From contig CABSMX010000001.1 in the NCBI GenBank assembly GCA_902478945.1, positions 841-64,840 on the forward strand: DNA of 64,000 bases. Reading direction: 5' to 3'. The translations under genes were made by a program, and so were the position numbers. The notes under the pieces were generated by a model, which was given only the letters and a program-made list of their open reading frames with translations, made no database searches and had not been told where the DNA came from. Source of the DNA: an uncultured Collinsella sp. (GTDB lineage Bacteria; Actinomycetota; Coriobacteriia; Coriobacteriales; Coriobacteriaceae). This document shows, in pieces, positions 1 to 22,944 of this stretch. Each line of letters starts with the position of its first letter. The stretch's first letter is position 1.

Positions 1-1176
1 GCGCTCGAGCACGGGGCGTCCGCCTCGTATGTCGACGAGAATCTCGACCTCGCGCGTGCCGACCCGGCGATGATGTTGCTGGGAGACCGTCCGCATATTA
101 TCGATGAGTGGCAGTGCGTTCCCCAGATTTGGGACTACGTTAGACACGAGGTCGACCGCACCCGGGGTACGCGCGGCGCCTATATCCTCACGGGTTCCGC
201 CACGCCTGCGTTTGGTTCAAAGGCGGAGGCGCCCGCGCATAGTGGAGCCGGCCGCATCGGCCGCGTCCGCATGCACCCCATGACGCTTGCCGAGACAGGT
301 GAGTCCAACGGCAAGGTGAGCCTGGCGGGCTTGTTTGAGCATCGTTTTGAGCCCTGCCGGTGCAATGGCGATACGCCGGGGCTTGTCGAAGCCGCTTGCC
401 GCGGCGGCTGGCCCGAGGCGATCGATATGGTTTCGGCTGACGCCCAGCTTATCGCCCGCGAATATCTCAACACCACGTTTTCGAGCAGCTTCCCGGCGGT
501 CGGTCTCGACCCCGATATTGCTCGTCGAGTCTCCGCATCGATCGCGCGCAATCTGGGACAGGCAACCACGTATAAAATGATTCTTATGGATATGTTCGGT
601 GCCGAGGAGGAACCCGCAGCGTTTGCCGATGAGACCAAGGTGCGCAGGTACCTGGATGCCCTCAAAGGCATGTTTATTCTCGAGGAGGTTCCCGGTTGGG
701 TTCCCGCCGCGCGCGACAAACGGCGCTTTACCGTCAAGCCCAAGCGCTATCTGGCAGATCCGAGCCTTGCTTGCGCCTTGCTAGGTATGTCCTCGCGGGC
801 GCTGCTTGCCGACTGGCAGACATTTGGTCTGGTGTTTGAGAATTTGGTCATACGCGACCTTTCGGTCTACGCACGTTCGCTCGACCTGCTGGATAGCACG
901 CCCGTGCGCTATTATCGCGACGATTCGGGCCTTGAGTGCGATGCTATCGTGCAGCTAGCCGACGGACGGTGGGCCGCCTTTGAGATTAAGGTGAGTGAAG
1001 ATAAAGCGAGCGCCGGCGTCGAGAGCCTCAAGCGCGTTCGCAAGAAGGTCTGTGGAAATCCTCGTTCACGCACACGCGAACCGGAGTTTATGGCCGTGAT
1101 TGTGGGGGTGGGTGAGTACGCCCGCGAGGTCGAGGACGGTATCTACGTGATACCCGTTCGCGCGTTGGGGTGTTAA
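1..1176 (+). CDS. AAA+ ATPase with C-terminal DUF4143 domain (COG1373-like); 5' end lies outside the window
   Basis: The frame of the 70..1176 ORF has no stop from nt 1 to the Met at 70, so the gene is cut by the window edge. Motifs such as IIDEWQ, YILTGSA, KRYLADPSL, FENLVIRDL and YYRDDSGLECDAIV..AFEIK match my memory of DUF4143 ATPases with a nuclease-fold tail. Confidence 0.7.
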   Translation, partial: ALEHGASASYVDENLDLARADPAMMLLGDRPHIIDEWQCVPQIWDYVRHEVDRTRGTRGAYILTGSATPAFGSKAEAPAHSGAGRIGRVRMHPMTLAETGESNGKVSLAGLFEHRFEPCRCNGDTPGLVEAACRGGWPEAIDMVSADAQLIAREYLNTTFSSSFPAVGLDPDIARRVSASIARNLGQATTYKMILMDMFGAEEEPAAFADETKVRRYLDALKGMFILEEVPGWVPAARDKRRFTVKPKRYLADPSLACALLGMSSRALLADWQTFGLVFENLVIRDLSVYARSLDLLDSTPVRYYRDDSGLECDAIVQLADGRWAAFEIKVSEDKASAGVESLKRVRKKVCGNPRSRTREPEFMAVIVGVGEYAREVEDGIYVIPVRALGC

Positions 1177-1427: not shown

Positions 1428-2498
1428 ATGGCACGCCCGCAAGCAGGGCAAACGCAAGCGATGAGTGGCATGGACCGACATAGCGAGCTCCAGCAGCACA
1501 AGACGGCGGCCGAGTACCGTCAAGCTGCCGACGAGCACGTGCGGACCCTCAAGGATTTCTGGAAGGATTTCCTGGTGAGTGGTCTGTTTGTGCTGGCCGC
1601 CATCGTTGCCATCTTTGCATGCTTGGCCTGGTTTGCCGCGAATAATCGAGTGAGCGCCACGGGGAGTACGATCGGGGCGAAGGCGGATCGGTATACGCTG
1701 ACCGCCGAGGGCGAGGGCGAGTCCGACGCCCACGTGGGCTATTACGAGCGTTCCGAGCGCACGCCCGAGGAAAAGGATGCCATCGATGGCTTGGATACGA
1801 CCGACGCCATGACGGTAACGCTCGGTTCCAACCTGAACAACGAGACCGCGGGCTCTCTGTACCCGGGTGCTCGCGGCAAGATTACATTTACGGTGAAGCC
1901 GCTGGTGAGTGACCTGGACGGGGTCACGATCAATCTGTCGCGCTTGCTTAAGGTCACGAACATTGTTGGCGTTGTTGGGGACGGGGGAACGCTGGCGCCC
2001 GAGGCGGAGGCGCTCCTTGGCTTGATCAAAGGCCACTTGCTGTTCTTTACGAGCTGCGACCAGAACGGGTATTACTCGGGCCGCGTGGTTGATAGCAAGA
2101 TCGAGATTCGCAAGAACGCATTTTGCGAAAACGGCGATGTGACCAAGCCAACGAACAGGCCCTTCACCATCAACCTGTACTGGGTGTGGCCGGAGTACTT
2201 CCAAAACTTCGTCCTTACCGGCAACACGAATTACTACAAGAACCTGTTTGCGGCGGCGGGCGACGCAAAGTCTGACTACGGCGCTTTGCAGGCGGACATG
2301 AACGAGCATAAAGCGAACTACTTCTATGGCGCGGCAAACGGCACGAGTGCTGCCAACGCCCCCGAGGTTTCGTCTAGCATGTCCTTCAGCGACACCGCCA
2401 TCTGCTCGGCGCTGTACAACAATGCCGACGAGCAGATCGGCAATAAGGTCAAATACATCCAACTTAGAATTAGCGCTCAGGAGGGCGTGAGCTCATGA
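1428..2498 (+). CDS. Signal-anchored secreted protein 1 of the giant-protein operon; possible TasA/camelysin-like fold
   Basis: The ATG at 1428 is preceded by GAAAAGGA; I judged the longer 1311 start unlikely because it adds a Cys/Trp-rich, non-protein-like leader. One hydrophobic helix (LVSGLFVLAAIVAIFACLAWFAANNRVSATGS) ends in a W-F-x-x-N motif resembling SipW-type signal peptides. LYPGARGKITFTV resembles the TasA-family L-x-PG-x-x-x-x-F strand. The coding call is solid; the product call is tentative. Confidence 0.6.
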   Translation: MARPQAGQTQAMSGMDRHSELQQHKTAAEYRQAADEHVRTLKDFWKDFLVSGLFVLAAIVAIFACLAWFAANNRVSATGSTIGAKADRYTLTAEGEGESDAHVGYYERSERTPEEKDAIDGLDTTDAMTVTLGSNLNNETAGSLYPGARGKITFTVKPLVSDLDGVTINLSRLLKVTNIVGVVGDGGTLAPEAEALLGLIKGHLLFFTSCDQNGYYSGRVVDSKIEIRKNAFCENGDVTKPTNRPFTINLYWVWPEYFQNFVLTGNTNYYKNLFAAAGDAKSDYGALQADMNEHKANYFYGAANGTSAANAPEVSSSMSFSDTAICSALYNNADEQIGNKVKYIQLRISAQEGVSS

Positions 2499-3295
2499 GC
2501 ACCATGCAAACGCGCCTCGGCGATGCCCGCAATTGGATAGAAAACCGCCGCGCACAGGCCCTTGCGGTCCTGATATTGCTGGCGGCAATCGCTCTTATCA
2601 TCGGCTTGTCGCTCTCGTGGTTTGTGGGCAGCAAAAGTCTGTCTACGGTGGGCAAGATCCAAACGCCCGCGCAGCTTAAGATCATGGGTCCCAACCAGAC
2701 GAGCATCGAGCCCATCGAGATTTCGTATGATGAGTCACGGGGCGATGTTAAAAACATAGACGGCACCGTGACCATTCGTCGCGCGTTTTGCGTGCGGAGC
2801 GACAATGGCGATCCCGCTGCCGGCGGTCAAGCGTTTGAGCTGCAGGTGGCAAATACCACGAATATCACGGGGCTGACAATCAACGTGTATCACGTGACGG
2901 TCAATAATCCGAACGATAAAAACGGCACCGTGGTCGGCCTCGACGGGCTCAACCGCACCTACTCATGGAGCAAGAAGAGCAGCACCCCGATTGAGTTTGC
3001 TTTTATCAACTCCGCGGACGGGACAAGTGCGTTGGCTAAAGAGCTTGAGGCAAACGACCCGACGTACGGCTCGTACGTGAATGTCCAGAAAAACGCCCGT
3101 CCGCTGTATCGGTACTACAAGTTCGCAGGGAGTGGGCTCGATGGCTGGAATGGCAAAACAGCCAACGCCGCCACGAACTTCATCATCGAATGTACGTGGA
3201 ATCCGGGCGTTGTGACCGTAAGCGGAAAGACGGTCTCCAACGTCAAAGAGACCGACATGGTTTATCTAATCGCTCGCGTCACGAGCGGCAACTAA
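2495..3295 (+). CDS. Signal-anchored secreted protein 2 of the giant-protein operon
   Basis: Its ATG overlaps the upstream stop (ATGA at 2495-2498). A single N-terminal helix (ALAVLILLAAIALIIGLSLSWFVGSKSLSTVGK) ends in the same W-F-x-x-S motif. The remainder is Asn/Thr/Gly-rich and looks like a beta-rich ectodomain. Confidence 0.6.
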   Translation: MSTMQTRLGDARNWIENRRAQALAVLILLAAIALIIGLSLSWFVGSKSLSTVGKIQTPAQLKIMGPNQTSIEPIEISYDESRGDVKNIDGTVTIRRAFCVRSDNGDPAAGGQAFELQVANTTNITGLTINVYHVTVNNPNDKNGTVVGLDGLNRTYSWSKKSSTPIEFAFINSADGTSALAKELEANDPTYGSYVNVQKNARPLYRYYKFAGSGLDGWNGKTANAATNFIIECTWNPGVVTVSGKTVSNVKETDMVYLIARVTSGN

Positions 3296-3319
3296 TAAGT
3301 AGGAGGGGAGGGGCGCCAG

Positions 3320-4318
3320 ATGCGAAAAGACAAGAACGAGCAAAATGAAATCGCGAGGCCTGTTGGTAAGCACTTTGCGCAGGTAGATAATTCTAAGACA
3401 GAGCCTTGCTGCACGGAGTCGGCGACCCCTACTTCTAAAGTGCGCAAGCGCCTATGGACGGTTGCGGTGCTGCTATGCGCCGTCGCGATTGTGGCGGGTA
3501 CCTACCTTACCTACACGGCCTTTTTGGCGGGTGACTTTCTTAAGTCGGTCGCTGTCTCGGGCACGTCGCAGGCGCTGTTTGCTTCGGACATGCTCACGGG
3601 TTACACGAATGAGACGCTGAATGACGAGGGTATTGCCGTCCGAAGTGTCATCGCCGACACGAGTGGGGAAAACTGCTTCTTTACCTTTCGCATTTACAAC
3701 CATCTGCTGGGCGACAAGAACAAGGTCAACGACAAGGACGTTAACGCGACGCTGAGCGTGGAGGCGACGGGAACGACGGGCACTTGGAGTGTTAACGGTA
3801 AGCCCACGCTGACGGCGGGCGGCACGGTCGACCTTTCCTTCCCTGCCAACAAGGCAACTATGTATACCTATAAGGTTACGTTTTCCAAGGCGGACCTCAA
3901 CAAAGCATCCTTCACCGTTAAAGCCAAGGTCGGCTCCAATAGCCCCGGCACCAACCTTAAATGGCTCGCCGCCAAGATTGCGCCTTCCGAACGTGCAGAG
4001 GTGACGGCTTCGGGCGTTTCGGGCGAGTGGGTCGACAAGAACAAGGATGATACGAATGTCGGCGACTTCGACGCCTACAACTATCGTGTGACCGTTACGG
4101 GCGCTACGACTAAGGTAAAGCTCACGTGGGGAAGCGGGGTCGAGCTCGATCCGTTCTTTGAGGCGAACCACAAGAACGGTAATGGGCAAGCAGCCGTCAG
4201 CGGCAACTCGATCACATACGATGCATCTCCTGGCTCGGAAATCATCACCTTTTACCGGAAGGGTGATTCGAAGCCGACCAGCTGGGAAGCCATTGGCGTT
4301 TCGTGTTCGGCCGCGTAG
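3320..4318 (+). CDS. Signal-anchored secreted protein 3 of the giant-protein operon
   Basis: A strong RBS (AGGAGGGGAGGGG) sits upstream. The N-terminal cytoplasmic tail is followed by one helix (LWTVAVLLCAVAIVAGTYLTYTAFLAGDFLKSVAVSGTS). The ectodomain is beta-rich (TFRIYN, YTYKVTF, FTVKAKV, YRVTVTG, KVKLTWG). Confidence 0.6.
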   Translation: MRKDKNEQNEIARPVGKHFAQVDNSKTEPCCTESATPTSKVRKRLWTVAVLLCAVAIVAGTYLTYTAFLAGDFLKSVAVSGTSQALFASDMLTGYTNETLNDEGIAVRSVIADTSGENCFFTFRIYNHLLGDKNKVNDKDVNATLSVEATGTTGTWSVNGKPTLTAGGTVDLSFPANKATMYTYKVTFSKADLNKASFTVKAKVGSNSPGTNLKWLAAKIAPSERAEVTASGVSGEWVDKNKDDTNVGDFDAYNYRVTVTGATTKVKLTWGSGVELDPFFEANHKNGNGQAAVSGNSITYDASPGSEIITFYRKGDSKPTSWEAIGVSCSAA

Positions 4319-4393
4319 GGCTAGCCGAAGCAATCCGCAAGCATAGATTTTGAGACCCCGCGCGGGGCATGAGATAGAACGAGGTAGGACCAG

Positions 4394-7300
4394 ATGAGAA
4401 CGGCAAAGCGCATAACAACCGCATGCCTGACTGCGATCATGATTTTCCAGGCGCTCGCGCCCTCCACAGAGGTGTTCGCGCAAGAGCTCGACACCGTTAT
4501 GGAGGCATCCGTCTCCGCCGCGCGCGCCGCGGGCAACACGGCGCGCTCCGTACAGGATGGCGTGGCCACCGCGCTGCAAGATGCTGACCAGGCTGCATCT
4601 GATGACGCCGCAACGACTCCGGGCGCCGACGCTGGCGCTACCGAGGGCGGCGACGGTTCTACCAACGCTGGCGAATCGCAGGACTCCACGACCGATGGAA
4701 CCACTAACGGCGATACCCCAACGGAGGGCGACGCGTCCCAAGATGATGCGGCTACCGATGAGGGCGCTGCTGACGAAGAACAAGCGGATGACGCGGACGC
4801 GGATGCTGCTGATCAGGCAGGCGCCAACTACCCCATCGCTACTGTCGAGGCTCTCAGGCACGCGTTGGGTGACGGCAATGTCATCACTGACGACTTGGGC
4901 GCCGTCACGGCCATTACCTTTGAGTCCAACGCCGACCTTATCGCCATCTCCAACACCGATCCCGCCATCTACCAGAACGCGAACATCTCCAAAGGTGGCT
5001 CGACCGGCATCGACTTCGACGTGTGCGGCGCGGAGATCGTGGACGGCTTGGGTAGCCTCACGTTCCAGGGCTTCGGCAGCGATGCCTACCCTTTCAAAGG
5101 CGCGCTCAACCTCGGCGACAGGACCCTGACCGTCAACAAGACGCTCTTCAACAACATCGAGCTCAGCGATGCCAACAGCACCGTAAAGCTCACCTGGAAG
5201 GGTACCGATGCCCAGCCCATCGTGGCCGCAAAGGTCACGGGCGCGGACAAGACGCTTGCTGCCACCGTTACCGTGGGCACGCCCAAGAGCGATACCGAAA
5301 AGGACATCTGCAAGCTCACCTCGCCGCTTGTGGGCGAGGTCACGGGCGCTCTCACGCTTAACGCCACCTACACGACAAGCGCGAACAGCCCCCTGGCAGT
5401 CGATATGCAATCGAGCGCAGGCAACATGGGCTTGCTTGTGAACACTCTTGCCGAAAAAGCATCGTTTACGCTTGCGGGCCTCGCCCTGCCGGACAACCTC
5501 GACGGTACGCCCACCATCAACGCGACAGCCGATGGCGCCAATGCAGGAGGCCTTATCGGCGAGGCGCAGGAGGGTGCCACCGTCGCCCTACCAACTGGCA
5601 TCGATGTCTCGGCGCTGAGCGTCGCAGGTAAAAACGCGGCGGGCGGTCTTATCGGTAAGGCGACTAAGCTCACGCTCACCGTGGGCAAGGATAACAGCGG
5701 AAAAGACGCCTCGGGCAAGGCTGTCGTCATCAAGCCCGCGCATGCGGTTGGATCGTCATCTGCCGGGACGTATGCAGGCGGCCTTATCGGCGACGCCTCG
5801 TTTGCCGACGCATTCACCATCAACAGCGGCATCTTCGACTTTGGCAAGGGCGTGGCGCTCAGTGTGTCCAACACGAGCGCTGCCCCTTCCGCCGGCGGAC
5901 TGTTCGGCGTGCTCGACATATCGAACGGCGACGCGGTCGTCAATGGCGGTTCGTATACAAGCACGCTGCAAAACGGCACGGACAACAGCAACAACAACGG
6001 CGTGCGCGGGAACTACGGCGGCTTGGTGGGCAAGCTGTGGGGGAAGAAGAACGGCGACGCGCTGCATGCCTTTACGGTGCAGGATGATACTGCGGTGTCG
6101 TTCGGCGTGGGCTCCAACGGCAAACTCACCTACGCGGGCGGCCTAGTAGGCTACCTTGGCGAAGGCGGCGGGAGTGCCAACGTGTCCGCCGTGGTCATCA
6201 GTGATGCAACAGTGACATGCTCAACCTCGGGCTACGCCAGTGCAAATGGCAAATACGGCGGCGCCGTGGGCGTCGTGGACACAAACAACGTTCTAGAAGT
6301 GCGCGGCCTGAAGGTCAAAACCGCCAGCGGCGCTAACATCGGCGGCACAAACGGCGGCTTTGCCGGAGTCGTTGGGTCGTCGTGGCTCGGCATCGTCAAG
6401 TTCAGCGGTATCACCGACCTGTCGGATGCCACCTTCGTGGAAAATGATCACACCGCGCAACTGATTTATGAGAACTTCAACTCGCTGATTTTTGCCGCCG
6501 GTAGCGGAAGCGATAGCGGCACCGCCGCAGGCGATACCATGAAATGGCAATATAAGCGCCCCTCTACGCCCGTCAAGATCGATGACGTGTACAGTTGCGG
6601 CCAAGTCATTCGCTTGGGCAACCCGTTGAGCGAGAACCTCATCTCCATCAACGAAGCGCACCGGTGGATCTTTAGCTCTAAGCTCGTAAAAACTGGCGAT
6701 GCATTTGCGCTGGCAAGTATCGACGATTTCGCAAAGCTGGCGATTACCTGGCAAACCAACGGCTACTACTCGATGGTTGACGGCGTTACCGAAAACAACC
6801 TTAACGGCTTGCAGTCCTTGACCATTACGGTGAGCGGCACTATTGATCTCAAGGGCACGGGCCTAACGGGTTTCACGCAGGATCGTGCAGACGGCTCGCA
6901 AGTTTTCTCGGGAACGTTGAACGGTGGCGGCACAAATGGCAACGGCACAATTAACCTTGCCGTCGGCGAGCCGTACGGCATGCGCGGTAAAGCTGTGCTC
7001 GACGGCAATGACACGAGCAACGGCAACGGCAAAATCTACCGCCACGGCCGCTTGGGCTTGTTCGCGGCCGTCAACGGCGCAACCATCTCCAACGTCACAA
7101 TCGCTGGCTCCATGAAGTTCGATAACGGTTCGGCTATCGATGCCGGGTCGCTTGCAGGTGCCATCGTCGGCAACCTGTCATTGTCTGGCGTAACGTGCAA
7201 AACGAATATCGCGTGTGATGATACGTTCAGCAACGAAGTGAACATTGGTGGTATTGCGGGCAGCGTGTCGGCGGCTTCTACGGTTGCGTTTGAGGGCGAC

Positions 7301-10300
7301 AGCAAGGCCCAGGCGACCATCACTAAAGCTCAAACGCTTAGCGGCAATATGCGCATTGGCGGCGCCATCGGCAATGTGGGCGACTATACCTCGACATTCA
7401 ATGTTACGCGCCTCGAAGTCGGCGGCAAAATCAAAACCGGCGATTGCGCCGGCGGCAAGATTGCCCAAGTCGGTGGCTTTATCGGCCGCATTGTGCAGGG
7501 ATCGAACGAGAAGCACGTTACCATTACCGGTCTTAGCTTTAGTGAATTCGCTATGACCGTGGGCAAGAACGGCGACAAGCTCAACGGCGCCGGTGGTCTT
7601 CTGGGCTACAGCTGGGGCAACGCCATCGTCACCATTGGCGATACTGCTGCGAATACCAGCGGCAGCGCCTACGCCCTCAAAACTTCCAACAACACGACCG
7701 TAACCGCAAATAGCTCTGCCGAGGTCGGCGGCCTCGTATACGCCGCCAGTGGCCACTGGATCGTCAATAATTATGCTATCAATTTGGCCAACGCTTCCTT
7801 CACCGCCAATAATGCAACCACGCTTGGCGTTCTTATTGCTCGCGGCGGTACATCCGATTCAAATAGCTTTGGTGCCGAGACCAACTATAACGGTCTATAT
7901 CTGGAGGACAGGGCTTCGTGGGACACCGCTTATGCTGTGAATGGCGTGTCTATAACCGCCCCAAAGGTAACGACATACGACGAATGGCTTGCAAATGGCG
8001 TGAAGCCCGAAAGCAATCTGATCGATAACGGCTGCAATGCGGTCGTCTCGCTTCATACCGAGGGCCAAAAGCTGGACATGAGCGGAAATCCCGCTAGAGA
8101 TAATAGTTATCAAAATCGCATTGCCCCCGCTAATTCTTCTGATGGCTTTCCACAATCAAATGGTTCTGTTCGCTACTACTACAATCTTGACAAAGCATAT
8201 GCGGAGGTAGGCAACAATCCGGAAAACGATAGCAAAGACAATTGGATGAACTCCGCAGAGTACTTATTACTTTGGTGTGCGTACCTGTATGCTCCTAGCG
8301 CGATTCAGGACTATATCATTCCGGGAAATCAGGCTATTTTCCAAGGAAACAATATTGGCACGAGCGACAGCGCGGGCGTGGAAATCAATTTAGATGGATA
8401 CAGTTTCTATCCTACTGACCCCGCGAAGGGCTCAACGGTTACTGTGAATAATGCAACGATTACGTTCCATTATTCCGACATTAAAGCTGAGCAAAAAGGT
8501 AACAAAAAGAATAGCGAAGCCACGCAGCACGAAAATATGCACTGCGCTCTCATCGGAACCCATACGGGCAGCCTCAAGGTTAAAAATGTCACGCTTGCAG
8601 GCACCGTGGGCTCTGTTGTGAACGATGAGGGAAGTTCGTCCGGCGCACTTGTGTGCCGCTGTATCTATGGACCCATCAATGAGACTAATGTGGCGCAGCT
8701 CGAGATAGATGGTCTGACACTCGACGGCTTGACGGTCGACGGTGTGAATGACGATACCAGTTACGCTCCTCTGCTTATCAACGAGATGCAGACATGCGTG
8801 AACCTGAGCGCTAAGAATATTTCAACCCGTAGCTACGCGAATGGGGCCACGGCGGCAACCTCGCTCTTCGGCAGACTCGGCGTGGGAAAAAATTCCGATC
8901 AGGTGACGGCGAAGTTTGAGCAAATCAGCTTGCCCAGCAAAAATAACGATACGATCTTCACCCATGCGAGCCTGCTGGAGAGTTTTGGCTACGGAAGCAC
9001 GAGCACGGGCTCTGCGGACTATACCTTTACTAAGGCCGAGGCCGATGCGGGCAAGGTGACATATGGAAGCGAAATCGATGCCAAGGACAAGGAATACTCT
9101 GGCAAGCAGCTTTGGTATTACGACAAAGAAACCTATGCCACCCCTAATGGCTTGGTGACGGTTGATAAAAAGCCGGCAGATGCCAAGAATCCTCGGTTTG
9201 GTGACTATCTTCCTTATGTTTACAAGGGAAAAGCCACCGAGGATGGCGTCCAGTATCACGAAATCAAGGTTAACCAGCGCATCCCTAACCTGATGACGGG
9301 ATGCGGTACGTATGGCGATCCGTACGCCGTTACGGACGCGACGGAAATGAACGCCATCGCTAACTACATCAACAACAGCGTGGCGTTGGATGGCTGGGAA
9401 GTCACTATTGCCGCCGATCAGTCCAGACTGTGCGAGCGGCGTAACAAAACGAAGATCGACAGCGCGAGGACCGACAACGAGGTCGTGTACGTCTATAAGC
9501 AGGCGAACGGTGCTGATAACAAATGGGAGAAGAAGAACGGCGATGCAACGACCGATCCCTCGCAGACGTTGAGCGACGAAACCATGCACCGCTATGTGCA
9601 GAGTGCGTATTACAGCATTGAGCCTCCTGAGGGCAATAAGATTACCGTCGATGCGGCCTCGTTTGGCGGATTTGGCAACAAGGCCAATCCGTTCCGTGGC
9701 GTAATTGTTGGCGACCTAGGCAAGTCAACTGCAGCAATTGAGATTGAAAATAACAAGGGCGAGCTTCGCGGTCTCATTCCCTATAGCTATGGCAGCGTGG
9801 TGCGCAATCTCAACATCAACTATGTGAATGCGCAGGCGACTATTACTTATTCTGATAAGGATGAGGACGGCGTTCCGACAGCGTTTTTCGGTGGCGTTAT
9901 CGGCTGCATTCTTGGCGGCGATAACATTATTGATGGCGTGGTCGTAAACAATCCAAATAACGGTTCGACAGCGTACGGCTTTACCGTTGTCAGCAACCCC
10001 GATGTCAGCAGATCGCATCTTGTTCCCATTGGCGGCTACGTTGGCGCTATTGCGGGTGGCGGCGTGATTTTCCGCCATACGGGCGATTCATGGCGTGGCG
10101 GCACAAAGGAAAAGTTCAAGCCCGTTGCGAAAGGCGGTGCCAACTCCCAACTGTACGACAACCCCTACGTTGGTCGTGTGATTGATGGCTATGCCTTTAG
10201 CGAGGGCTGTGCCGTAAAAAACGGCGATGCTAACTACAAGATTAACGAGCTCAAAGACAAGGGAACCCCCTGTGTCACCACCACGGGCACCGACAACAAG

Positions 10301-13300
10301 TACATCGGCACCAACGCTGAGGCGCCCGTGACTACGGTGGAAAACGCCCAGGGCCTTTTGGTGCTCTCGGCTATCATCAGCTCGGGTGCGGGCGCTGGCG
10401 CGGCGCAAACCGACTACGCCGATTATGGCGTGTTCCGCGGCTCCAAGGCGTACTGGGGCAACGACACGGAAGATCCGGCGATATGCGGCTATTTGTTTGG
10501 CAACAAGAACTATGGCAAGGTACGAAATGCCAACTACGACAGTGTGGGCAAGCCCGCGGGTGTCGCCAGCGATTTCGAAGCCGCCAAAAATGATGACCAG
10601 AAGGCTCCCGGTAAGCAGGGCTGGCACGGACCCCTCGACGCGGACAACGACGTGAACTCGCCCTACCTGGTGGCGTCTTATGCTGCCAACTACCAAACGG
10701 GCTACGTGTGCGCCTCGAAGTCGATTGGCATGAGCCTGGAGTTCAAACAGGGCGCCCCCTACGATATGACCGGTTACGGCACGGGATATGTGGGCCTTAA
10801 CGGCCGCTACTATTCCAATGCCTGCGACTCGAACGAGGCGACCACCGACCGCGACCGCATCACGCCGCACATAGCCACGATCGACGGTAACGGCGCCACC
10901 ATCACGGTGGGTACCGAAGACGCCGCCTACGGCGCCGTCGAATACGCCGACGACGACTATAAGGTCTCGGGCGTGGGTGGCCTATTCAGCACCGTGATGT
11001 TCACCTCCACCAATGTGGGGCAGAGCGTTACCGCGAACGACCGCGCGCAGGTCAAAGACCTCACCTTTAGCAACTGCAACGTAGCGCTCACCTATATCGA
11101 CACCAACGGCGAAGCCAAACCGGGACAGGCGACGAACGACCTTATCGGCACTGGTCTTTTGGCGGGCGCAACGGCCAACTACGACGTCTGGACGTGCGGC
11201 GTCTACCGCAACGTGCAGATGAAGAACTGCACCGTGTCGGGCGCTAAGAGCGTAGGAGGGCTTCTTGGCAGCTCGGGCCGCGCCAGCAGAAGTACGGACA
11301 GTGACGTGACCTATATGGTCAAATTCAGCTCCACGTGGGCACCCATGTATCTCTACGACTGCTCGTACACCGGTCTTAACGTCGCGGGCGAGAAGTACGT
11401 CGGCGGCTACGTGGGTACGGTCGCCTCGTCAAGCGGCGTGTGGACAACCGCGGCCAAAGGGATGAGCGAGAAGGCTGTTGGCGAAAGCTCGACCATAACC
11501 GCCACGGGGACAACGCCCTACGTGGGCGGTGTGATCGGCTTTGCCAAATCAAGTCATATCTCGGTCAACACCAACATCGGTGCCACAACAGCGGTCCCGT
11601 CGAGCACGGCAGTCATCTCTGGGGTGAATGTGCTTGCCACCGGGGAGAATACCGATAGGTATATGGGCGCCGGCGGCGTGGTCGGGCGCGTCGATGGCGG
11701 CGTTATTTCTATGAGCAACGTGCGCATTGATGCCGGGACCGGCACCAAGAACGCCGTCATCGGCGATGGTACCGGAAAGAACTTCAAAATCCGCAATGCG
11801 GGCGGACTGATTGGCGAGGTCACGAGCAGCGGCAGCCCTAACACGTACTGGTTCGAGGACTGCAACGTCAAGAACGTTAACATCGCCGGTACCGACCAAT
11901 GCTCGGGCGGGCTTATTGGCTACTACTTCAGCAATGTGAACATAACTTGCAACAACATCGCAATTGAGAACGCTGCGATCAATGGCAGCTGGAGCGGCGG
12001 TCTACTTGGCGCGATTAACAGCGGGTCCGATGTCATCAACGTCACCAACACAAAGGTTTCCAACACCACGTTTGGCGGAACATCCAACGGTGGCATCGCG
12101 GGCGACGGCCGCGGCCAGTTTCATCTGGTAAACGTGCTCATGGACAGCAATATCTATAAATCTGACGCTAAGCAGGGTGTGCTCTTGGGCGAGGTCGACA
12201 CAGGCGGCTATAGCCTTTCCGCAGCGGGCGTGGACGTAAAGCCCGGCAAGGGCAAGACCACGAGCGACCTGCCGCCGATGGTTTACACGACCAATACGGC
12301 CGCCGTTAACAAGAAAACCTACATCGCGTTCGGAGACTACAACGACAGGCTCGACGTACCCGGCAAGGACACCACGCTCTACGGTGCGGACGATACCGCT
12401 ACTACGGCTGCAAGCCCATACGTGACCACGAGCCCCGTGAGCACGCTGGCGGTGCGTGCCTCCAACGACGACACCACTGATCGCTATCTGTTTGGCGACG
12501 GTGTCGCCATTGACACCGCGACGACCATCCAGAGCGAGGCAGGCACCAGTGTTGCCGGCCGCTACACCTATACCAATATCGGCGGCATTAATGATGCCGG
12601 CGCGTACCAAAACACGAGCACCTATAGCGCGGACAGCCCAAGGCCCACTTTCAACACCAACAACGTTACATCGGACAAGAAGGCTGCAACCGACTTCCCT
12701 GTACTCATGATTCCCGGCAACGACACGACGACGGTCGAGAAGTATCTGAACATCGTGACTAACGGCGGCTTTTCCGATGCCCGTCGCCTCAACGGCAGCG
12801 CCAAGCACGTGACCGCCACCGCTGAGGTCTTCAATCTTGCCGATAACGGCGCCTTCGTCAAGGACGCAACCGCCTCGCAAACGCCCACGCTCAAGGTGCT
12901 CAACAACGGCACGAGCTCCATGGTTTTCCGCGCGAGTACCGACTGGGACAACGAGCGGGGCCGCTTCACGCTGCTCACGGTCACTTTTAGAGAGGCCGGC
13001 CAGAGCTATCGCGTGCAGGTGCCCATCATCGTTAAGCGCATGCTCGAGATCGACTTCACCGCCACCTACTCCGAGGGCGCGAACTTCAAGGCTGCCGACT
13101 TTGCGACTCAATACGACAATCACGTGCTTGTGAGCAGCGGCGATACCATGACCGGTTACCTTACCTGGACCTATGGCAGCGCCCGGGGTGAGGCGGTCGC
13201 TTACGGCTGGAACACGCTGCTCGAAGCCGGCGGCTCCATGGGCCCGCTCAACAAAAGCATCACCTTTGGTGCCACGCTGCCCAAGGGCACGCAGCTCACA

Positions 13301-15043
13301 CTCGTGGACACTGCAAACAACAACCGTGAATACCACTGCACGGTCGGCGCAGGCGGAGCAGCGTCGGTCAAGCTCACCGACTTTGTGGATGCCGGCAACA
13401 ATGCCTACGTCGAGCCATGGCTGAGTGAAACCGTGGGCGTGAAGGCCAAGGAGGATAAGGAAAACGGCGCTTGGGTCAAGCTCACCGATGACGAGGTTGC
13501 GAACAAGAGCCAGGTCGAGCTCGCGAAGACGGCTGGCGCCAAGGTTGATGGCGCGTACTACCGCGCGCGTACATCTTCCGACACGATGGGCACGTTCTAC
13601 ACCCTCTCCGTTGCCAAGGAAGAGCCCAAGAGTGAGAACTTCTACTTGGTGGTGCGCACGCCGGCGGGCTCTGCGGGTGTCAACGGCTACACCGCAACTA
13701 CGGTGGACACGAGCCTCAACGAGCACATCAACTACCTGCTGCGAGGCAAGAAAGCAGCCGACGGCAAGGCTGCCGAGGACGGGCACCAGAATACGCCCTC
13801 GACCTACAGCGTGACATCCAACTACACGCACGGCCTCATCGATAACAACAAGGACGGCATCAAACAGATGGAGCTTCACGATGTCACCTATCCGCTTACC
13901 ATGAAGGTAAGCGACACCGTGAAGTTCGACTCGAACCAGCAATACACGAGCTCAGACGAGCTGTACTACCAGCTGGATTCTTCGCTCGTGAACTACGAAG
14001 GCGGCAAGGCCGCGGGCGCGCATGGCTACCCGACCGGAACCCAGGGCACGTATTCGTTCTACGTGAAGGTGGGGGGCAAGTACTACACGTGGAATGGTTC
14101 TAAGTGGATTGATGCCGGCACGTCGCCAACGCCGGCTATTGCTGCCAAAGACTGGTCTGCAACGGGTGGCGACATGTCGCTTGTGCTTGCCGATGCCAGT
14201 GGCAAGGCCATCGACCTTTCCGGCATTCGCGAGATCGCTAAGAACCATGGCAGCGAGTTCACCATCACCATGGAGGCGAATCTCGCCATGACGGAGCCTG
14301 CGTGCCAGGCTGGTATTATCGCTTCGCAGAATGGCGGCACAGATAAGTACACAAAGCCCAACTACCGTGCGCACCTCTCTACGCATGCCGAAACGCTCAG
14401 CACCAGTAGCAACTCGGCATACATCGGCGGCATAGCTGGATACTACCGCATGGACGTGGGCTCCTCGACTATTGCGCTCGAGGCTTCAAAGAAGTCGCAG
14501 CTGGGCATCAACATCGATGACCTCAAGTCCGCCGACGGCGAAATCGCTTTGGTGGGAACGTATGATTTGTCCAAGCTCGCGGGTGCTGAGGCCATGATCT
14601 CCAATGCCAGCACGGTGACGTACACGCTGAGCTTGCAGAAGCGCCGCCAAGATGATGATCGTTATGATGCGGTCGACAACATCTCAAGCTACATTACGGT
14701 GCTCGGTAGCGACAAGTTGGCTAACGGCTCTTTGAGCGCCGATGGCAAGAATTACGTATTTACTGATAGCAAGGGGACTGGCGGCACGTTCGCCACGCGC
14801 GACGGCAACAGCCTTGCCTTTAAGCATGCCTTCCGCGTTAAGGTGAACACCGATGTTGAGGGCAAGGACCAAACTTATGCCAACTACCGCTTGGTGCTTA
14901 CGGCTCATATGTCCGGCGTCGGTGTCAACGACACGCCGGTTAACGTCAGCAGCCTCGCCGGCTATGCGAACTCCGACTACGTGACGTACACGCTAGCGCG
15001 CATCAACACCAAGGGCATTCCCCATGAGACGAAAACCAACTAG
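4394..15043 (+). CDS. Giant (3,549 aa) secreted GLUG-motif repeat protein with no recognisable cell-wall anchor
   Basis: A Sec-type signal peptide (MRTAKRITTACLTAIMIFQALAPSTEVFA/QE) is followed by an Asp/Ala/Thr-rich acidic spacer. There are many G-G-[LFV]-[IVAF]-G motifs (AGGLIGEA, AGGLIGKA, AGGLIGDA, AGGLFGV, YGGLVGK, AGGLVGY in the first block; VGGLLGS, VGGYVGT, VGGVIGF, AGGVVGR, AGGLIGE, SGGLIGY, SGGLLGA in a second block near nt 11250-12100). This is typical of the GLUG motif of large Gram-positive surface proteins. The C-terminus (..ARINTKGIPHETKTN) has no LPXTG or hydrophobic tail. Confidence 0.85.
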   Translation: MRTAKRITTACLTAIMIFQALAPSTEVFAQELDTVMEASVSAARAAGNTARSVQDGVATALQDADQAASDDAATTPGADAGATEGGDGSTNAGESQDSTTDGTTNGDTPTEGDASQDDAATDEGAADEEQADDADADAADQAGANYPIATVEALRHALGDGNVITDDLGAVTAITFESNADLIAISNTDPAIYQNANISKGGSTGIDFDVCGAEIVDGLGSLTFQGFGSDAYPFKGALNLGDRTLTVNKTLFNNIELSDANSTVKLTWKGTDAQPIVAAKVTGADKTLAATVTVGTPKSDTEKDICKLTSPLVGEVTGALTLNATYTTSANSPLAVDMQSSAGNMGLLVNTLAEKASFTLAGLALPDNLDGTPTINATADGANAGGLIGEAQEGATVALPTGIDVSALSVAGKNAAGGLIGKATKLTLTVGKDNSGKDASGKAVVIKPAHAVGSSSAGTYAGGLIGDASFADAFTINSGIFDFGKGVALSVSNTSAAPSAGGLFGVLDISNGDAVVNGGSYTSTLQNGTDNSNNNGVRGNYGGLVGKLWGKKNGDALHAFTVQDDTAVSFGVGSNGKLTYAGGLVGYLGEGGGSANVSAVVISDATVTCSTSGYASANGKYGGAVGVVDTNNVLEVRGLKVKTASGANIGGTNGGFAGVVGSSWLGIVKFSGITDLSDATFVENDHTAQLIYENFNSLIFAAGSGSDSGTAAGDTMKWQYKRPSTPVKIDDVYSCGQVIRLGNPLSENLISINEAHRWIFSSKLVKTGDAFALASIDDFAKLAITWQTNGYYSMVDGVTENNLNGLQSLTITVSGTIDLKGTGLTGFTQDRADGSQVFSGTLNGGGTNGNGTINLAVGEPYGMRGKAVLDGNDTSNGNGKIYRHGRLGLFAAVNGATISNVTIAGSMKFDNGSAIDAGSLAGAIVGNLSLSGVTCKTNIACDDTFSNEVNIGGIAGSVSAASTVAFEGDSKAQATITKAQTLSGNMRIGGAIGNVGDYTSTFNVTRLEVGGKIKTGDCAGGKIAQVGGFIGRIVQGSNEKHVTITGLSFSEFAMTVGKNGDKLNGAGGLLGYSWGNAIVTIGDTAANTSGSAYALKTSNNTTVTANSSAEVGGLVYAASGHWIVNNYAINLANASFTANNATTLGVLIARGGTSDSNSFGAETNYNGLYLEDRASWDTAYAVNGVSITAPKVTTYDEWLANGVKPESNLIDNGCNAVVSLHTEGQKLDMSGNPARDNSYQNRIAPANSSDGFPQSNGSVRYYYNLDKAYAEVGNNPENDSKDNWMNSAEYLLLWCAYLYAPSAIQDYIIPGNQAIFQGNNIGTSDSAGVEINLDGYSFYPTDPAKGSTVTVNNATITFHYSDIKAEQKGNKKNSEATQHENMHCALIGTHTGSLKVKNVTLAGTVGSVVNDEGSSSGALVCRCIYGPINETNVAQLEIDGLTLDGLTVDGVNDDTSYAPLLINEMQTCVNLSAKNISTRSYANGATAATSLFGRLGVGKNSDQVTAKFEQISLPSKNNDTIFTHASLLESFGYGSTSTGSADYTFTKAEADAGKVTYGSEIDAKDKEYSGKQLWYYDKETYATPNGLVTVDKKPADAKNPRFGDYLPYVYKGKATEDGVQYHEIKVNQRIPNLMTGCGTYGDPYAVTDATEMNAIANYINNSVALDGWEVTIAADQSRLCERRNKTKIDSARTDNEVVYVYKQANGADNKWEKKNGDATTDPSQTLSDETMHRYVQSAYYSIEPPEGNKITVDAASFGGFGNKANPFRGVIVGDLGKSTAAIEIENNKGELRGLIPYSYGSVVRNLNINYVNAQATITYSDKDEDGVPTAFFGGVIGCILGGDNIIDGVVVNNPNNGSTAYGFTVVSNPDVSRSHLVPIGGYVGAIAGGGVIFRHTGDSWRGGTKEKFKPVAKGGANSQLYDNPYVGRVIDGYAFSEGCAVKNGDANYKINELKDKGTPCVTTTGTDNKYIGTNAEAPVTTVENAQGLLVLSAIISSGAGAGAAQTDYADYGVFRGSKAYWGNDTEDPAICGYLFGNKNYGKVRNANYDSVGKPAGVASDFEAAKNDDQKAPGKQGWHGPLDADNDVNSPYLVASYAANYQTGYVCASKSIGMSLEFKQGAPYDMTGYGTGYVGLNGRYYSNACDSNEATTDRDRITPHIATIDGNGATITVGTEDAAYGAVEYADDDYKVSGVGGLFSTVMFTSTNVGQSVTANDRAQVKDLTFSNCNVALTYIDTNGEAKPGQATNDLIGTGLLAGATANYDVWTCGVYRNVQMKNCTVSGAKSVGGLLGSSGRASRSTDSDVTYMVKFSSTWAPMYLYDCSYTGLNVAGEKYVGGYVGTVASSSGVWTTAAKGMSEKAVGESSTITATGTTPYVGGVIGFAKSSHISVNTNIGATTAVPSSTAVISGVNVLATGENTDRYMGAGGVVGRVDGGVISMSNVRIDAGTGTKNAVIGDGTGKNFKIRNAGGLIGEVTSSGSPNTYWFEDCNVKNVNIAGTDQCSGGLIGYYFSNVNITCNNIAIENAAINGSWSGGLLGAINSGSDVINVTNTKVSNTTFGGTSNGGIAGDGRGQFHLVNVLMDSNIYKSDAKQGVLLGEVDTGGYSLSAAGVDVKPGKGKTTSDLPPMVYTTNTAAVNKKTYIAFGDYNDRLDVPGKDTTLYGADDTATTAASPYVTTSPVSTLAVRASNDDTTDRYLFGDGVAIDTATTIQSEAGTSVAGRYTYTNIGGINDAGAYQNTSTYSADSPRPTFNTNNVTSDKKAATDFPVLMIPGNDTTTVEKYLNIVTNGGFSDARRLNGSAKHVTATAEVFNLADNGAFVKDATASQTPTLKVLNNGTSSMVFRASTDWDNERGRFTLLTVTFREAGQSYRVQVPIIVKRMLEIDFTATYSEGANFKAADFATQYDNHVLVSSGDTMTGYLTWTYGSARGEAVAYGWNTLLEAGGSMGPLNKSITFGATLPKGTQLTLVDTANNNREYHCTVGAGGAASVKLTDFVDAGNNAYVEPWLSETVGVKAKEDKENGAWVKLTDDEVANKSQVELAKTAGAKVDGAYYRARTSSDTMGTFYTLSVAKEEPKSENFYLVVRTPAGSAGVNGYTATTVDTSLNEHINYLLRGKKAADGKAAEDGHQNTPSTYSVTSNYTHGLIDNNKDGIKQMELHDVTYPLTMKVSDTVKFDSNQQYTSSDELYYQLDSSLVNYEGGKAAGAHGYPTGTQGTYSFYVKVGGKYYTWNGSKWIDAGTSPTPAIAAKDWSATGGDMSLVLADASGKAIDLSGIREIAKNHGSEFTITMEANLAMTEPACQAGIIASQNGGTDKYTKPNYRAHLSTHAETLSTSSNSAYIGGIAGYYRMDVGSSTIALEASKKSQLGINIDDLKSADGEIALVGTYDLSKLAGAEAMISNASTVTYTLSLQKRRQDDDRYDAVDNISSYITVLGSDKLANGSLSADGKNYVFTDSKGTGGTFATRDGNSLAFKHAFRVKVNTDVEGKDQTYANYRLVLTAHMSGVGVNDTPVNVSSLAGYANSDYVTYTLARINTKGIPHETKTN

Positions 15044-15051: not shown

Positions 15052-15087
15052 GGGGCGGCAACCACCCGGTTGCCGCCCTCTTTTCTT
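15052..15087 (+). terminator. Intrinsic terminator of the giant-protein operon
   Basis: GGGCGGCAAC-CACCCG-GTTGCCGCCC is followed by TCTTTTCTT, starting 9 nt after the stop codon. Confidence 0.8.
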
Positions 15088-15120
15088 GTTCGCCTGACCC
15101 GCTGCTGTCCCAGCTACCCA

Positions 15121-15217
15121 CCAACTTTCCAGCTTTCCACCCAACTTACCACCTAAGGTGGAAAGCTGGAAAGTTAAGTGGAAAGCTGGTAAGTTAGGTG
15201 GAAAGTTGGAAAGTTGG
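15121..15217. repeat. Composite TGGAAAG repeat module, upstream copy
   Basis: CCAACTTTCCAGCTTTCCAC / CCAACTTACCACC / TAA / GGTGGAAAGCTGGAAAGTTAA / GTGGAAAGCTGGTAAGTTAG / GTGGAAAGTTGGAAAGTTGG. That is two inverted and three direct ~20-bp units, with the TGGAAAG heptamer phased about every 10 bp. The module abuts the RBS of the 15228 gene. Confidence 0.9.
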
Positions 15218-15227
15218 GAGGTTCGGC

Positions 15228-16697
15228 ATGAATGAGGAGTGGTTGGCGCAGGTTATCCATCATCTGCGGGCAATAGGAAACGACACCCAGCAGTACGAAG
15301 TAAAAGAAGCCAAGGGCGCGCTCCCCAAAAGCATCGTCGAGACGCTTTCGGCATTTTCCAACGCGCAGGGCGGCTTTATCATCCTCGGCATTTCCGAAAA
15401 GAACGGGTTTATGCCCGTCGAGGGTTTTGATGCCCGCAAGATGCAAGACGCCCTCTCTTCTGCATGTGAAAAGCCGACGCCCGTTGTGAGGCCGGATATC
15501 CAAGTGCTCCCCTTCGAGGGTAAGCTGGTGCTTTGCGCGCGCATCAAAGAAATGCATCCACGCGATAAACCCTGCTATATTGCGGCACGCGGAATGTACG
15601 ATTCGTCCTTTATCCGTACGGGCGACGGCGACCGGCGCATGACTCCCTACGAAATCGATCGCTTTATGGAGGAGCATGTTCAGCCTACATACGACGACGA
15701 GCCGGTCGAAGGTGCCACGCTCGATGACCTTGACGCCGATCTTTTGCAAAGGTTTATAAAACGCCAGCGCGAGCTACACCCTAGGCTTTTGGGCACCAGA
15801 AGCGACGATGAGATTCTCCTTGATCTGCATGTGACCAAAAGGGTGGACGACGCAATCGTGCCGACGCTTGCTGCAATTGTCGCGATGGGACGGTTTCCGC
15901 AAAAGTTCTTCCCACGTCTCAATGTGACCTTTACGGCGTACCCCGGGACCACAAAAACGCAGCGAGTAAGTGATAACAAGCGTTTTGTGGATTCTCAGAC
16001 CATTTTGGGTCCGATCCCTTTCATGATTGAGGACGTGCTTGCCGCCGTTGCGAGAAACACCCGAAACGCAGCGGTTATCGAGGGCGCGTTCCGGAAAGAT
16101 GTGCCCGATTATCCGCCCGTGGCGCTGCGCGAGGCGGTGGCGAACGCGCTCATGCACCGCGACTACTCTTCCGCCGCGCGTGGCTCACAAGTGCAGGTCA
16201 ACCTGTATATCGACCGCGTCGAGATTCTCAATCCCGGCGGGCTGTACGGCGATGTAACGATCGATTTGCTGGGAGTTTCTGGGGTTCCGTCATCTAGAAA
16301 CCAGTTCCTTTCAAATATCCTCGAGACCACGCCGTACCCAGGCGGTGGCTACGTGGTCGAAAATCGCGGCACTGGTTATCAGGAAATAGGTGAGCAGCTC
16401 GAGCGGGCAAACATGCTGCCGCCCGAACCAAAGAACTCGACGGTTTCTTTTTCGCTGACGTTCGATAAGCGAAAGATAATGCGGGCGGAACAGGTGACAT
16501 CTGTGGGGCATGTGGACGAGGCAATCTTGGATTACCTGGCAACACATTCTTCGGCTTCGGCCAAGGAGCTCACCGACGCTTCGGGTTTGAGCAGGAGCGC
16601 CGTTTCCAACCACATAAAAGGCTTGATTGGTGCGGGCAAGATTGAGGCGATGGAGCCTCCGCGCAGCCCGCGACAGCGGTATCGACTCGCGAAGTAG
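15228..16697 (+). CDS. COG2865-type protein: AlbA_2 (Schlafen-like) DNA-binding domain + HATPase_c_4-like domain + C-terminal winged HTH
   Basis: The ATG at 15228 is preceded by GGGAGG. N-terminal YEVKEAKG..LSAFSNAQGGFIILGI is typical of the AlbA_2 domain. ALREAVANALMHRDY is typical of the HATPase_c_4 region. The C-terminus (ILDYLATHSSASAKELTDASGLSRSAVSNHIKGLIGAGKI) is a MarR/ArsR-like wHTH. Confidence 0.8.
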   Translation: MNEEWLAQVIHHLRAIGNDTQQYEVKEAKGALPKSIVETLSAFSNAQGGFIILGISEKNGFMPVEGFDARKMQDALSSACEKPTPVVRPDIQVLPFEGKLVLCARIKEMHPRDKPCYIAARGMYDSSFIRTGDGDRRMTPYEIDRFMEEHVQPTYDDEPVEGATLDDLDADLLQRFIKRQRELHPRLLGTRSDDEILLDLHVTKRVDDAIVPTLAAIVAMGRFPQKFFPRLNVTFTAYPGTTKTQRVSDNKRFVDSQTILGPIPFMIEDVLAAVARNTRNAAVIEGAFRKDVPDYPPVALREAVANALMHRDYSSAARGSQVQVNLYIDRVEILNPGGLYGDVTIDLLGVSGVPSSRNQFLSNILETTPYPGGGYVVENRGTGYQEIGEQLERANMLPPEPKNSTVSFSLTFDKRKIMRAEQVTSVGHVDEAILDYLATHSSASAKELTDASGLSRSAVSNHIKGLIGAGKIEAMEPPRSPRQRYRLAK

Positions 16698-20548: not shown

Positions 20549-20560
20549 GAGGCGGCATCC

Positions 20561-21843: not shown

Positions 21844-21848
21844 GGTCC

Positions 21849-22937: not shown

Positions 22938-22944
22938 GCGCGGC

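Follow-up and report, generated by a model that had tools for sequence, protein, structure and literature searches.

The window analysed here, a 64-kb stretch of contig CABSMX010000001.1 from an uncultured Collinsella species, carries close to its start a cassette of four genes, which encode three small proteins with one membrane helix each (P1, P2 and P3) and a very large exported protein (the giant). The cassette is a real, conserved and uncharacterised four-gene surface module, and it probably serves as a display or fibre system of the cell surface that has yet to be described; our literature search found no paper describing it. Its four proteins, none of which has a match in a curated family, take up about 13.6 kb, and their gene order is conserved across two phyla. 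The genes and the end of the operon are located as follows (here and below, an arrow marks a putative cleavage site).

1428..2498, plus strand: P1, 356 amino acids, with a cytoplasmic tail, one transmembrane helix and an ectodomain (from the open reading frame, its translation and its hydrophobicity)
2495..3295, plus strand: P2, 266 amino acids, with a short tail, a transmembrane helix (residues 22-41), W42-F43 and a beta-sandwich ectodomain
3320..4318, plus strand: P3, 332 amino acids, with a 42-residue tail, a transmembrane helix (residues 43-66) and T-Y-T↓A67-F68
4394..15043, plus strand: the giant, 3,549 amino acids, with a Sec-type signal peptide, an acidic linker, a Gly/Asn/Thr-rich body and no anchor motif
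15052..15079, plus strand: intrinsic terminator at the operon end, a 12-bp stem with 9 G-C pairs, then CTTTTCTTGT

An original prediction, made from this DNA alone, had described four tightly packed same-strand genes between 1428 and 15043 and a single strong terminator at 15052; both descriptions stand. The list of open reading frames gives the order P1-P2-P3-giant on the plus strand, and direct checking confirmed the ATGA overlap of P1 and P2 at 2495-2498 and the gaps of 24 nt between P2 and P3 and 75 nt between P3 and the giant. Shine-Dalgarno-like purine runs precede the starts of P2, P3 and the giant, and the 12-pair hairpin with its T-run is the best terminator-like candidate in the 17 kb examined. 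The start of P1 is ambiguous: its reading frame opens at 1311, and in public gene calls translation begins at the ATG at 1461 (345 amino acids), which encodes Met12 and is the conserved start among homologues.

The P1-P2-P3-giant order is intact in 78 of the 80 loci from Collinsella genomes, the other two running out of sequence. A further 80 Coriobacteriia-like metagenome loci (GC 53-62%, with P2 43-97% identical to that of the window) keep the order of the three small genes wherever the DNA extends, and the giant comes next in the 69 that are long enough. The co-occurrence of the four genes in other Coriobacteriia, which the original prediction had put forward as a check, is seen in 78 of 80 genome loci and in the 69 of 80 metagenome loci whose sequence extends to the giant. 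Outside this class, the same four genes stand in the same order in all 13 Firmicutes loci (L085-L097), with sizes of about 330-425 (P1), 221-254 (P2) and 299-337 (P3) amino acids and a giant of at least 2,875-3,933 amino acids. The sequences fall into three clades: clade C is made up of Collinsella and further Coriobacteriia-like contigs, Blautia sp. MSJ-19 (Lachnospiraceae-type) belongs to clade A, and clade B is Oscillospiraceae-type.

All four proteins are orthologous between the two phyla. P1 of clades A and B is recovered by BLASTP at E-values of 1e-10 to 1e-27 and by hidden Markov models (HMMs) at 6e-41 and 1e-28, and P2 in Firmicutes at 1e-18 to 1e-29. P3 is recognised in clade A by HMM (E 2e-28) and in clade B by hhalign (99.8% over 273 columns), while the giants align with 26-30% identity over 2,400-3,100 amino acids (E 0 to 1e-140). 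Fixed order and translational coupling thus persist between the window and the Firmicutes cassettes at a protein identity of 24-32%, which argues against the small genes and the giant being mere neighbours without a joint function, a reading that we find barely credible. Because the surrounding genes differ completely between lineages, the conserved unit is the cassette itself; synteny across two phyla and orthology of all four proteins bear out the proposal that the four genes form a functional unit.

Two observations were made on individual loci. L081 (CAVCKO010000036.1), labelled 'Treponemataceae bacterium', has a Collinsella-type cassette, and its P2 matches with an identity and an E-value equal to those found for L082 and L083; the label is probably a binning error. 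In L087 and L088 (11881-20765 in each), P1 to P3 are identical, and the giant is split in L087 (1,599 and at least 2,332 amino acids) and intact in L088 (3,933 amino acids). These two loci also differ upstream: one has a transposase and a GGDEF gene, the other mobile-element genes (Mob_Pre/TnpV).

Within Collinsella, the cassette varies next to a nearly constant flank. The 5' neighbour, a DUF4143/AAA_14 ATPase gene (window 70-1176) unrelated to the cassette proteins, is 95-99% identical across loci with divergent cassettes (L108, L130, L172). Beside this flank, the identities range over 63-99% for P1, 46-100% for P2, 43-100% for P3 and 41-97% for the giant, with medians of 93, 88, 84 and 75-88%, respectively. 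The most extreme contrast is in L108, where a 95% identical flank adjoins a P2, P3 and giant amino-terminus of only 46, 43 and 41% identity. The identity is also mosaic: in L017, P3 is 100% identical but the giant amino-terminus 80%, and in L139, P3 is again 100% identical but the giant 75-88%. This implies that old allelic lineages have recombined with one another at one fixed position in the chromosome. On sequence grounds, this hypervariability suggests an exposed surface structure under diversifying selection; a variable locus beside a near-invariant neighbour is the signature of a structure met by hosts, phages or competitors.

The original prediction had given each small protein one amino-terminal hydrophobic helix that ends in an aromatic motif. 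Kyte-Doolittle windows above 1.6 indeed define a single segment in each (residues 44-73 of P1, 17-49 of P2 and 41-70 of P3), and the motifs are present and conserved. In the shared amino-terminal module, basic residues are followed by a helix of 20-23 residues, by small residues at positions -3 and -1 and then by an invariant aromatic pair, which reads A↓W-F in P1 and P2 and A↓A-Y or T↓A-F in P3. The module is the sole similarity between the three families (by hhalign, a probability of 95% for P1 and P2 over 46 columns and of 82% for P2 and P3). P1, P2 and P3 were also considered as paralogues; this was rejected, as BLASTP and hhalign align only these approximately 46 amino-terminal columns and the ectodomains are unrelated. 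In P1, the module lies as follows.

1563..1634, plus strand: transmembrane helix of P1 (residues 46-67) and Trp68-Phe69 after Cys-Leu-Ala, a putative signal-peptidase site A↓WF

Trp68 and Phe69 of P1 are invariant in nine sequences from the three clades. For P2, whose family comprises 139 clusters at 50% identity, 62 representatives that are 21-64% identical to the window protein were compared. Position +1 is Trp in all 62; position -1 is Ala in 47, Ser in seven, Thr in six and Gly in two; position -3 is Thr in 28, Ser in 17 and Val in nine, with Ile, Cys, Ala or Met in the rest; and position +2 is Phe in 47 and Leu in 11. The corresponding site reads C/S/T/G-x-A/G↓W-F in P1 and S/T/V/A-x-A/G/T↓A-Y/F in P3, where T-Y-T↓A67-F68 of the window protein aligns with G-S/T-F-A↓A-Y of the Firmicutes orthologues. 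Read from these alignments, the motif conforms to the (-3,-1) rule for type I signal peptidases and has aromatic residues at P1'/P2', which makes it a putative cleavage site. In all three proteins, the combination of an aromatic P2' with small residues at both -1 and -3 is the substrate pattern of the endoplasmic reticulum (ER)/archaeal-type signal peptidases. The likeness to the end of a SipW-dependent signal peptide, to which the original prediction had pointed, is upheld to this extent: by its small -3/-1 residues and aromatic P1'/P2', the helix end behaves as a specialised site of the TasA/SipW type.

Within Collinsella, no part of P2 or P3 is more conserved than the 20-25 residues that follow the motif. 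This segment is 95-99.7% conserved, compared with 86-92% for the ectodomains, and in P1 it likewise exceeds the ectodomain. Its predicted local distance difference test score (pLDDT) is below 50 in the AlphaFold2 (AF2) models of both P1 and P2. Such a conserved, low-pLDDT segment is how an inter-subunit strand would look in a monomer model. In TasA, the donor strand comprises residues 28-38, directly after the cut, and TapA is similar in that amino-terminus (PMC9674648). According to another report, TasA requires the archaeal-like SipW owing to Phe at P2', which is poorly handled by the bacterial LepB (PMC10269814).

The best-supported mechanism, which we favour tentatively, combines Sec export, a SipW-like cut, heteromeric assembly of P1 to P3 and retention or presentation of the giant. 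All four proteins would leave the cell through Sec. An ER/archaeal-type (SipW-like) signal peptidase, of the class that handles an aromatic P2' such as that of TasA, would cleave the small proteins at their aromatic site, and the freed, strand-prone amino-termini would let P1, P2 and P3 assemble into a short hetero-oligomeric surface fibre or pedestal. This structure would hold or present the anchor-less giant through a putative contact, and the giant would be an outward-facing, fast-evolving adhesin or matrix component.

The Oscillospiraceae-type relatives provide a candidate peptidase. In five of the six clade B loci (L089, L090, L092, L095 and L096), a SipW-type peptidase gene (222-228 amino acids) lies two small genes 5' of P1. 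These loci are diverged, with P1 to P3 only 40-73% identical among them. The L089 copies score 92-94 bits against TIGR02228, the family of archaeal-type signal peptidase I (cut-off 51.85), and also match the SipW equivalog model below its cut-off.

Several points weigh against processing and assembly of this kind. An HMM built from four SipW homologues found no SipW-type peptidase in the 64-kb window, as the original prediction had noted, and neither the clade A flanks nor the 160 Coriobacteriia-type ones contained a SipW-like reading frame. In clade B, the peptidase may act on a different protein encoded at the locus, the giant included. The AF2 models have one continuous helix that passes through the proposed cut site (residues 4-49 of P2 and 27-72 of P1). 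The tail and helix of P1 are 98-99.7% conserved among 118 Collinsella variants, compared with 88% for the ectodomain, which is unusual for a disposable signal peptide. Uncleaved bitopic proteins, too, typically have Trp or Phe where a helix ends. The sole PDB sequence matches of the P2 profile are weak ones, to the amino-terminal helices of FliL and archaeal flagellin. The TIGR04088 cut-off for SipW-dependent-type signal peptides (19 bits) is not reached in the scores listed, and Foldseek gave no match at E below 0.03 for the models of P1 and P2, and so no significant likeness to fibre subunits.

Because of the absence of a SipW gene from the window and from the Coriobacteriia-type and clade A flanks, the continuous helices, the conserved P1 tail and the FliL-like profile, a model with uncleaved anchors is a serious rival and a distinct possibility. 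P1 to P3 would then be type II (N-in, C-out) bitopic proteins, together forming a dedicated platform on which the giant, once exported through Sec, is held non-covalently at the membrane or wall or is helped to fold and mature, and the aromatic motif would be the interfacial end of the helix. The helices of 20-23 residues are long enough to span the membrane, the giant has no anchor of its own, and the long, charged cytoplasmic tails of P1, conserved between Collinsella and clade A, suggest a cytoplasmic partner. Anchoring alone would not need the strict small residues at -3 and -1 before an invariant Trp in 62 divergent P2 proteins, however, nor does it account for the peptidase gene close by in five of six clade B loci. 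The stretch after the membrane, most conserved in P2 and P3 and predicted to be disordered, also fits an interaction strand better than a stalk.

Processing like that of TasA is plausible by analogy; membership of the small proteins in the TasA family is not supported. The original prediction had called them TasA/camelysin-like, which as a statement of homology or fold is not supported. Peptidase_M73 (PF12389) gives no match in P1, P2 or P3 of the window (E≤1), in the 62 P2 relatives (E≤0.1) or in the Firmicutes P1 and P3 proteins (E≤1), and the family profiles of P1, P2 and P3 find no TasA chain among PDB sequences. TIGR04088 does not match the window proteins at E≤1; among 42 P1, P2, P3 and extra proteins, four match at E≤1 (best E 0.0021), and the scores listed, 13.1 and 14.9 bits for Firmicutes P3 proteins, are below its cut-off. 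These sub-threshold matches on some P3 orthologues, together with the pattern likeness of the signal-peptide end and of a 'PG..G.I.F' strand in P1, are what speaks for divergent TasA/CalY homologues with the same jellyroll and donor-strand fibres. The P1 strand is located here:

1857..1895, plus strand: motif LYPGARGKITFTV of P1 (residues 144-156), a 'PG...F' pattern

The original prediction had likened this motif to the 'PGD..F' strand of TasA. The motif is present and conserved, with Pro146, Gly147 and Phe154 invariant across the three clades; its likeness to the TasA strand is one of pattern only, and a profile match to the TasA family was not obtained. Considering also that the three ectodomains are unrelated to each other and that no TasA chain is among the top 50 Foldseek matches of P1 or P2, we regard true TasA/camelysin membership as very improbable.

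Individually, P1, P2 and P3 match no Pfam or NCBIfam family at E≤1. No PDB sequence is matched by P1, as a single sequence or as a family profile, or by the family profile of P3, and that of P2 matches none beyond the amino-terminal helix. The P2 model, from a 130-sequence alignment, has a pLDDT of 70.6 and a predicted template modelling score (pTM) of 0.63, with the helix of residues 4-49 followed by 11 strands. Invariant in P2 are Trp42, Pro58, Thr121-Thr122-Asn123, Gln198..Pro203..Tyr205 and Lys251-Glu252-Thr253-Asp254..Tyr257. Foldseek matches of this model are weak (E≥0.03) and comprise carbohydrate-binding modules, the donor-strand pilins CS17 and CfaB and Gram-positive pilins; the most probable neighbours are CS17 (probability 0.94) and CfaB (0.80), not significant at E≥0.05 and template modelling (TM) scores of 0.3-0.5. 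The P1 model has a pLDDT of 63.9, residues 150-350 or so being confident. It was built on a shallow alignment, because the search with the P1 profile returned almost only Collinsella variants, and it has no significant Foldseek neighbour in the PDB or in BFVD (viral structures). In the fold comparison that the original prediction had proposed, neither the TasA jellyroll (PDB 5OF1, 5OF2 and 8AUR) nor archaeal bundling pilins came up in the Foldseek top 50 of the P1 and P2 models, which are of moderate quality.

Three small, amino-terminally hydrophobic proteins in a row recall minor-pilin operons, and the amino-terminal helices have weak profile matches to an archaeal pilin and archaeal flagellin (E 1.4-1.5). 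A type IV pilin-like or pseudopilin set would be cut ahead of the helix by a prepilin-type peptidase and keep the helix as filament core, the pseudopilus exporting or presenting the giant. This is highly unlikely. The class III motif (G/A↓F/M-x-x-x-E before the helix) is absent from the sequences and alignments, there is no prepilin peptidase, assembly ATPase or platform gene in any locus examined, and in the models the helix does not pack against the beta domain.

Two further observations concern P2. The window protein is 100% identical to the copy of Collinsella MGYG-HGUT-04374. The large proteins P0132, P0135 and P0139 appeared as P2 homologues and were rejected as an artefact, in which 16-19 perfect 92-residue tandem repeats sum a chance match of 27 residues.

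The giant starts with its Sec-type signal peptide (residues 1-29, nt 4394-4480), which is followed by an acidic linker (residues 31-150, pI 4.05) and the long Gly/Asn/Thr-rich body. The original prediction's picture of a Sec leader without a recognisable anchor is correct: no Kyte-Doolittle window exceeds 1.6, leaving no helix strong enough to span a membrane and no hydrophobic tail; [LIVS]PxTG occurs nowhere, the carboxy-terminus ending ...KGIPHETKTN; and no Pfam domain, including wall-binding ones, is found with the whole protein at E≤1 or with its thirds at E≤10. NCBIfam and PDB sequences give no match either. Pfam lends no support to the label 'GLUG protein', since PF07581 matches neither the whole giant nor its thirds. 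The pattern [AGS]GG[LIVF][VILAF]G nevertheless occurs in 10 copies, against about 0.1 expected from composition by our own arithmetic. The motifs of the giant are the following.

5543..6151, plus strand: first cluster of GG[LIV]xG ('GLUG-like') motifs, residues 384-586, with five motifs at 384, 416, 461, 500 and 581
8525..8557, plus strand: QHxxMHxxL motif (QHENMHCALIG), residues 1378-1388, conserved in orthologues
11669..12010, plus strand: second cluster of GG[LIV]xG motifs, residues 2426-2539, with four motifs at 2426, 2469, 2504 and 2534

The Gln, both His and the Met of QHxxMHxxL are kept in 16 of 17 orthologous loci from all three clades, the second His being Gln in L086. A zincin metalloprotease (e.g., of the M26 IgA1 protease type) was considered and rejected: the single HENMH corresponds to QH-x-x-MH in the orthologues, where the Glu is replaced by Val, Ala or Tyr. 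Self-BLAST reveals no internal repeats at E<1e-3, and Tandem Repeats Finder none inside the operon. The HMMs of P1, P2 and P3 match nothing in the giant.

The Firmicutes loci have lineage-specific genes upstream of the cassette, at these positions:

L089:74-5877, L092:2-4182, L095:1-2665, L096:190-3648 and L090:71-1479: clade B upstream block
L093:4215-8572, L094:4579-8742 and L085:1-3233: clade A upstream block

Apart from the peptidase, the clade B block encodes a 140-158-residue transmembrane protein and a charged protein of 86-89 residues (80-97% identity). Upstream in L089, L092 and L096, and partially in L095, is a DUF2357 protein of 671-680 amino acids that contains a long coiled coil rich in Glu, Arg and Lys but no recognisable nuclease domain; in L089 and L092 its gene is preceded by that of a membrane-anchored McrB-like AAA protein (534 amino acids, with a GTGKT Walker A motif and 'LDEMN'). 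The cytoplasmic parts of the block are 59-97% conserved, compared with the 40-73% of P1 to P3, and the block may belong to the system rather than being an inserted restriction module.

In clade A, a PilZ gene lies upstream in three of six loci (L085, L093 and L094), accompanied in L093 and L094 by an HD-GYP-type response regulator. As gene neighbours, these suggest a surface or biofilm role that may be controlled by cyclic di-GMP (c-di-GMP). The same three loci add three further proteins, none of which matches Pfam. Two of the three have 'STYAWF/YAWY'-type amino-termini like that of P1, STYAWFVSNNKV or ATYAWYVVNNRV, TasA-like starts that are also written STYAWFVSNNKVTG or ATYAWYVVNNRVQG. A carboxy-terminal motif, 'IWMEG(D/T)D..C', is common to two of the three. 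Between the PilZ block and the cassette of Blautia sp. MSJ-19 (L085:3837-3948) there is a 'drum' small RNA (Rfam RF02958, 92.5 bits). A search for a c-di-GMP or other riboswitch 5' of P1 was negative for the window and for seven Firmicutes loci. None of the clade A and B accessory genes (PilZ, McrB-like AAA, DUF2357, the 140-residue transmembrane protein TM-140, the charged protein cc-87 and SipW) is in the window, where the sole matches of their products are two weak amino-terminal ones of clade A 'extra' proteins to P1.

Among known systems, the B. subtilis tapA-sipW-tasA and B. cereus sipW-tasA-calY operons are like the cassette in the atypical cleavage site, putative in the cassette, with an aromatic P2' in secreted subunits, in a dedicated ER/archaeal-type signal peptidase encoded beside its substrates (here only in the clade B relatives), in having several substrates with similar post-cleavage amino-termini, as TasA and TapA have, and in a biofilm or surface role, which the PilZ/c-di-GMP neighbours of clade A suggest for the cassette. 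Unlike them, the cassette shows no homology to TasA, TapA or CalY, either in sequence or, as far as detectable, in fold. It combines three unrelated ectodomains in fixed order, whereas those operons have one major subunit with an accessory one, and it is obligatorily coupled to a conserved giant of some 3,000-3,900 residues. It also differs in the absence of sipW near the Collinsella and clade A copies and in the long, conserved cytoplasmic tails of P1.

In the C. perfringens sipW-bsaABCRSD operon, sipW is followed by BsaA, B, C and D, and BsaA depends on SipW for export and polymerises without a sortase (PMC7395162). A leading sipW with several putative substrates downstream is also the arrangement of the clade B loci. 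The Bsa operon, however, has no giant, its proteins are unrelated in sequence to those of the cassette, BsaA is a 23-kDa homopolymer, and an operon-encoded two-component system exerts the regulation.

Donor-strand pili (CFA/I and CS17 of chaperone-usher class 5, archaeal bundling pili and threads) share with the cassette small beta-sandwich subunits, CS17 and CfaB being the best weak neighbours of P2, and the idea of minor subunits bearing a large distal adhesin. The cassette differs in having neither usher nor chaperone and in its Gram-positive envelope, and the likeness of P2 is not significant.

Sortase-anchored giant adhesins are likewise very large secreted surface proteins of gut Gram-positive bacteria. 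The window encodes one at 23995-29892, a 1,965-residue surface protein of the sortase-pilus type that combines a VWA domain with nine Spy0128-like isopeptide (FctA) domains; no sortase gene was seen among the neighbouring reading frames scanned. Unlike such proteins, the 3,549-residue giant has no LPXTG, carboxy-terminal helix, FctA/Cna-B domains or any Pfam domain, and it comes with three dedicated small proteins.

Almost nothing is known about the surface biology of Collinsella, Blautia and Oscillospiraceae, all of them abundant in the human gut. If SipW-type processing and retention of the giant are both true, the TasA paradigm would widen to a heteromeric, giant-carrying architecture with a dedicated peptidase and strand-mediated assembly, and it would be explained how anchor-less giants stay on Gram-positive cells. 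A still broader proposal is a cross-phylum Gram-positive apparatus, in which three dedicated, unrelated subunits with a private signal for export and processing would form a heteromeric pedestal or fibre that carries a giant of 3,000-3,900 residues, devoid of known domains, non-covalently, replacing sortase anchoring, as a recombining, 'serotype-like' hypervariable locus of abundant gut commensals; in this full form, we consider it rather unlikely. The cassette offers candidates for strain typing and for adhesion or immune recognition in microbiome studies.

Of the remaining window, the original prediction had stated that it contains no sortase or secretion ATPase. Pfam scans agree for most of the larger reading frames, in which neither was found; some reading frames matched nothing. 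On the 3' side of the cassette is an unrelated AlbA_2/HATPase_c_4/wHTH regulator gene (15198-16697). Two adjoining arrays of 20-nt tandem repeats, CCAGCTACCCACCCAACTTA (2.3 copies) and GTGGAAAGCTGGAAAGTTAA (2.9 copies), occupy 15110-15215, between the operon terminator and the start of this gene. Hydrogenase-4-like genes follow: 17666-23003 encodes a fused Proton_antipo_M and NADHdh protein (960 amino acids) and a Complex1_49kDa/NiFeSe subunit, pointing to a membrane complex of the hydrogenase-4/Ech type. Near the far end of the window, a cluster at 58248-62544 contains a DUF4428 zinc-ribbon, a Trm112-like zinc-finger protein (440 amino acids), an SPFH/Band_7_1 protein and an unannotated open reading frame of 301 amino acids.

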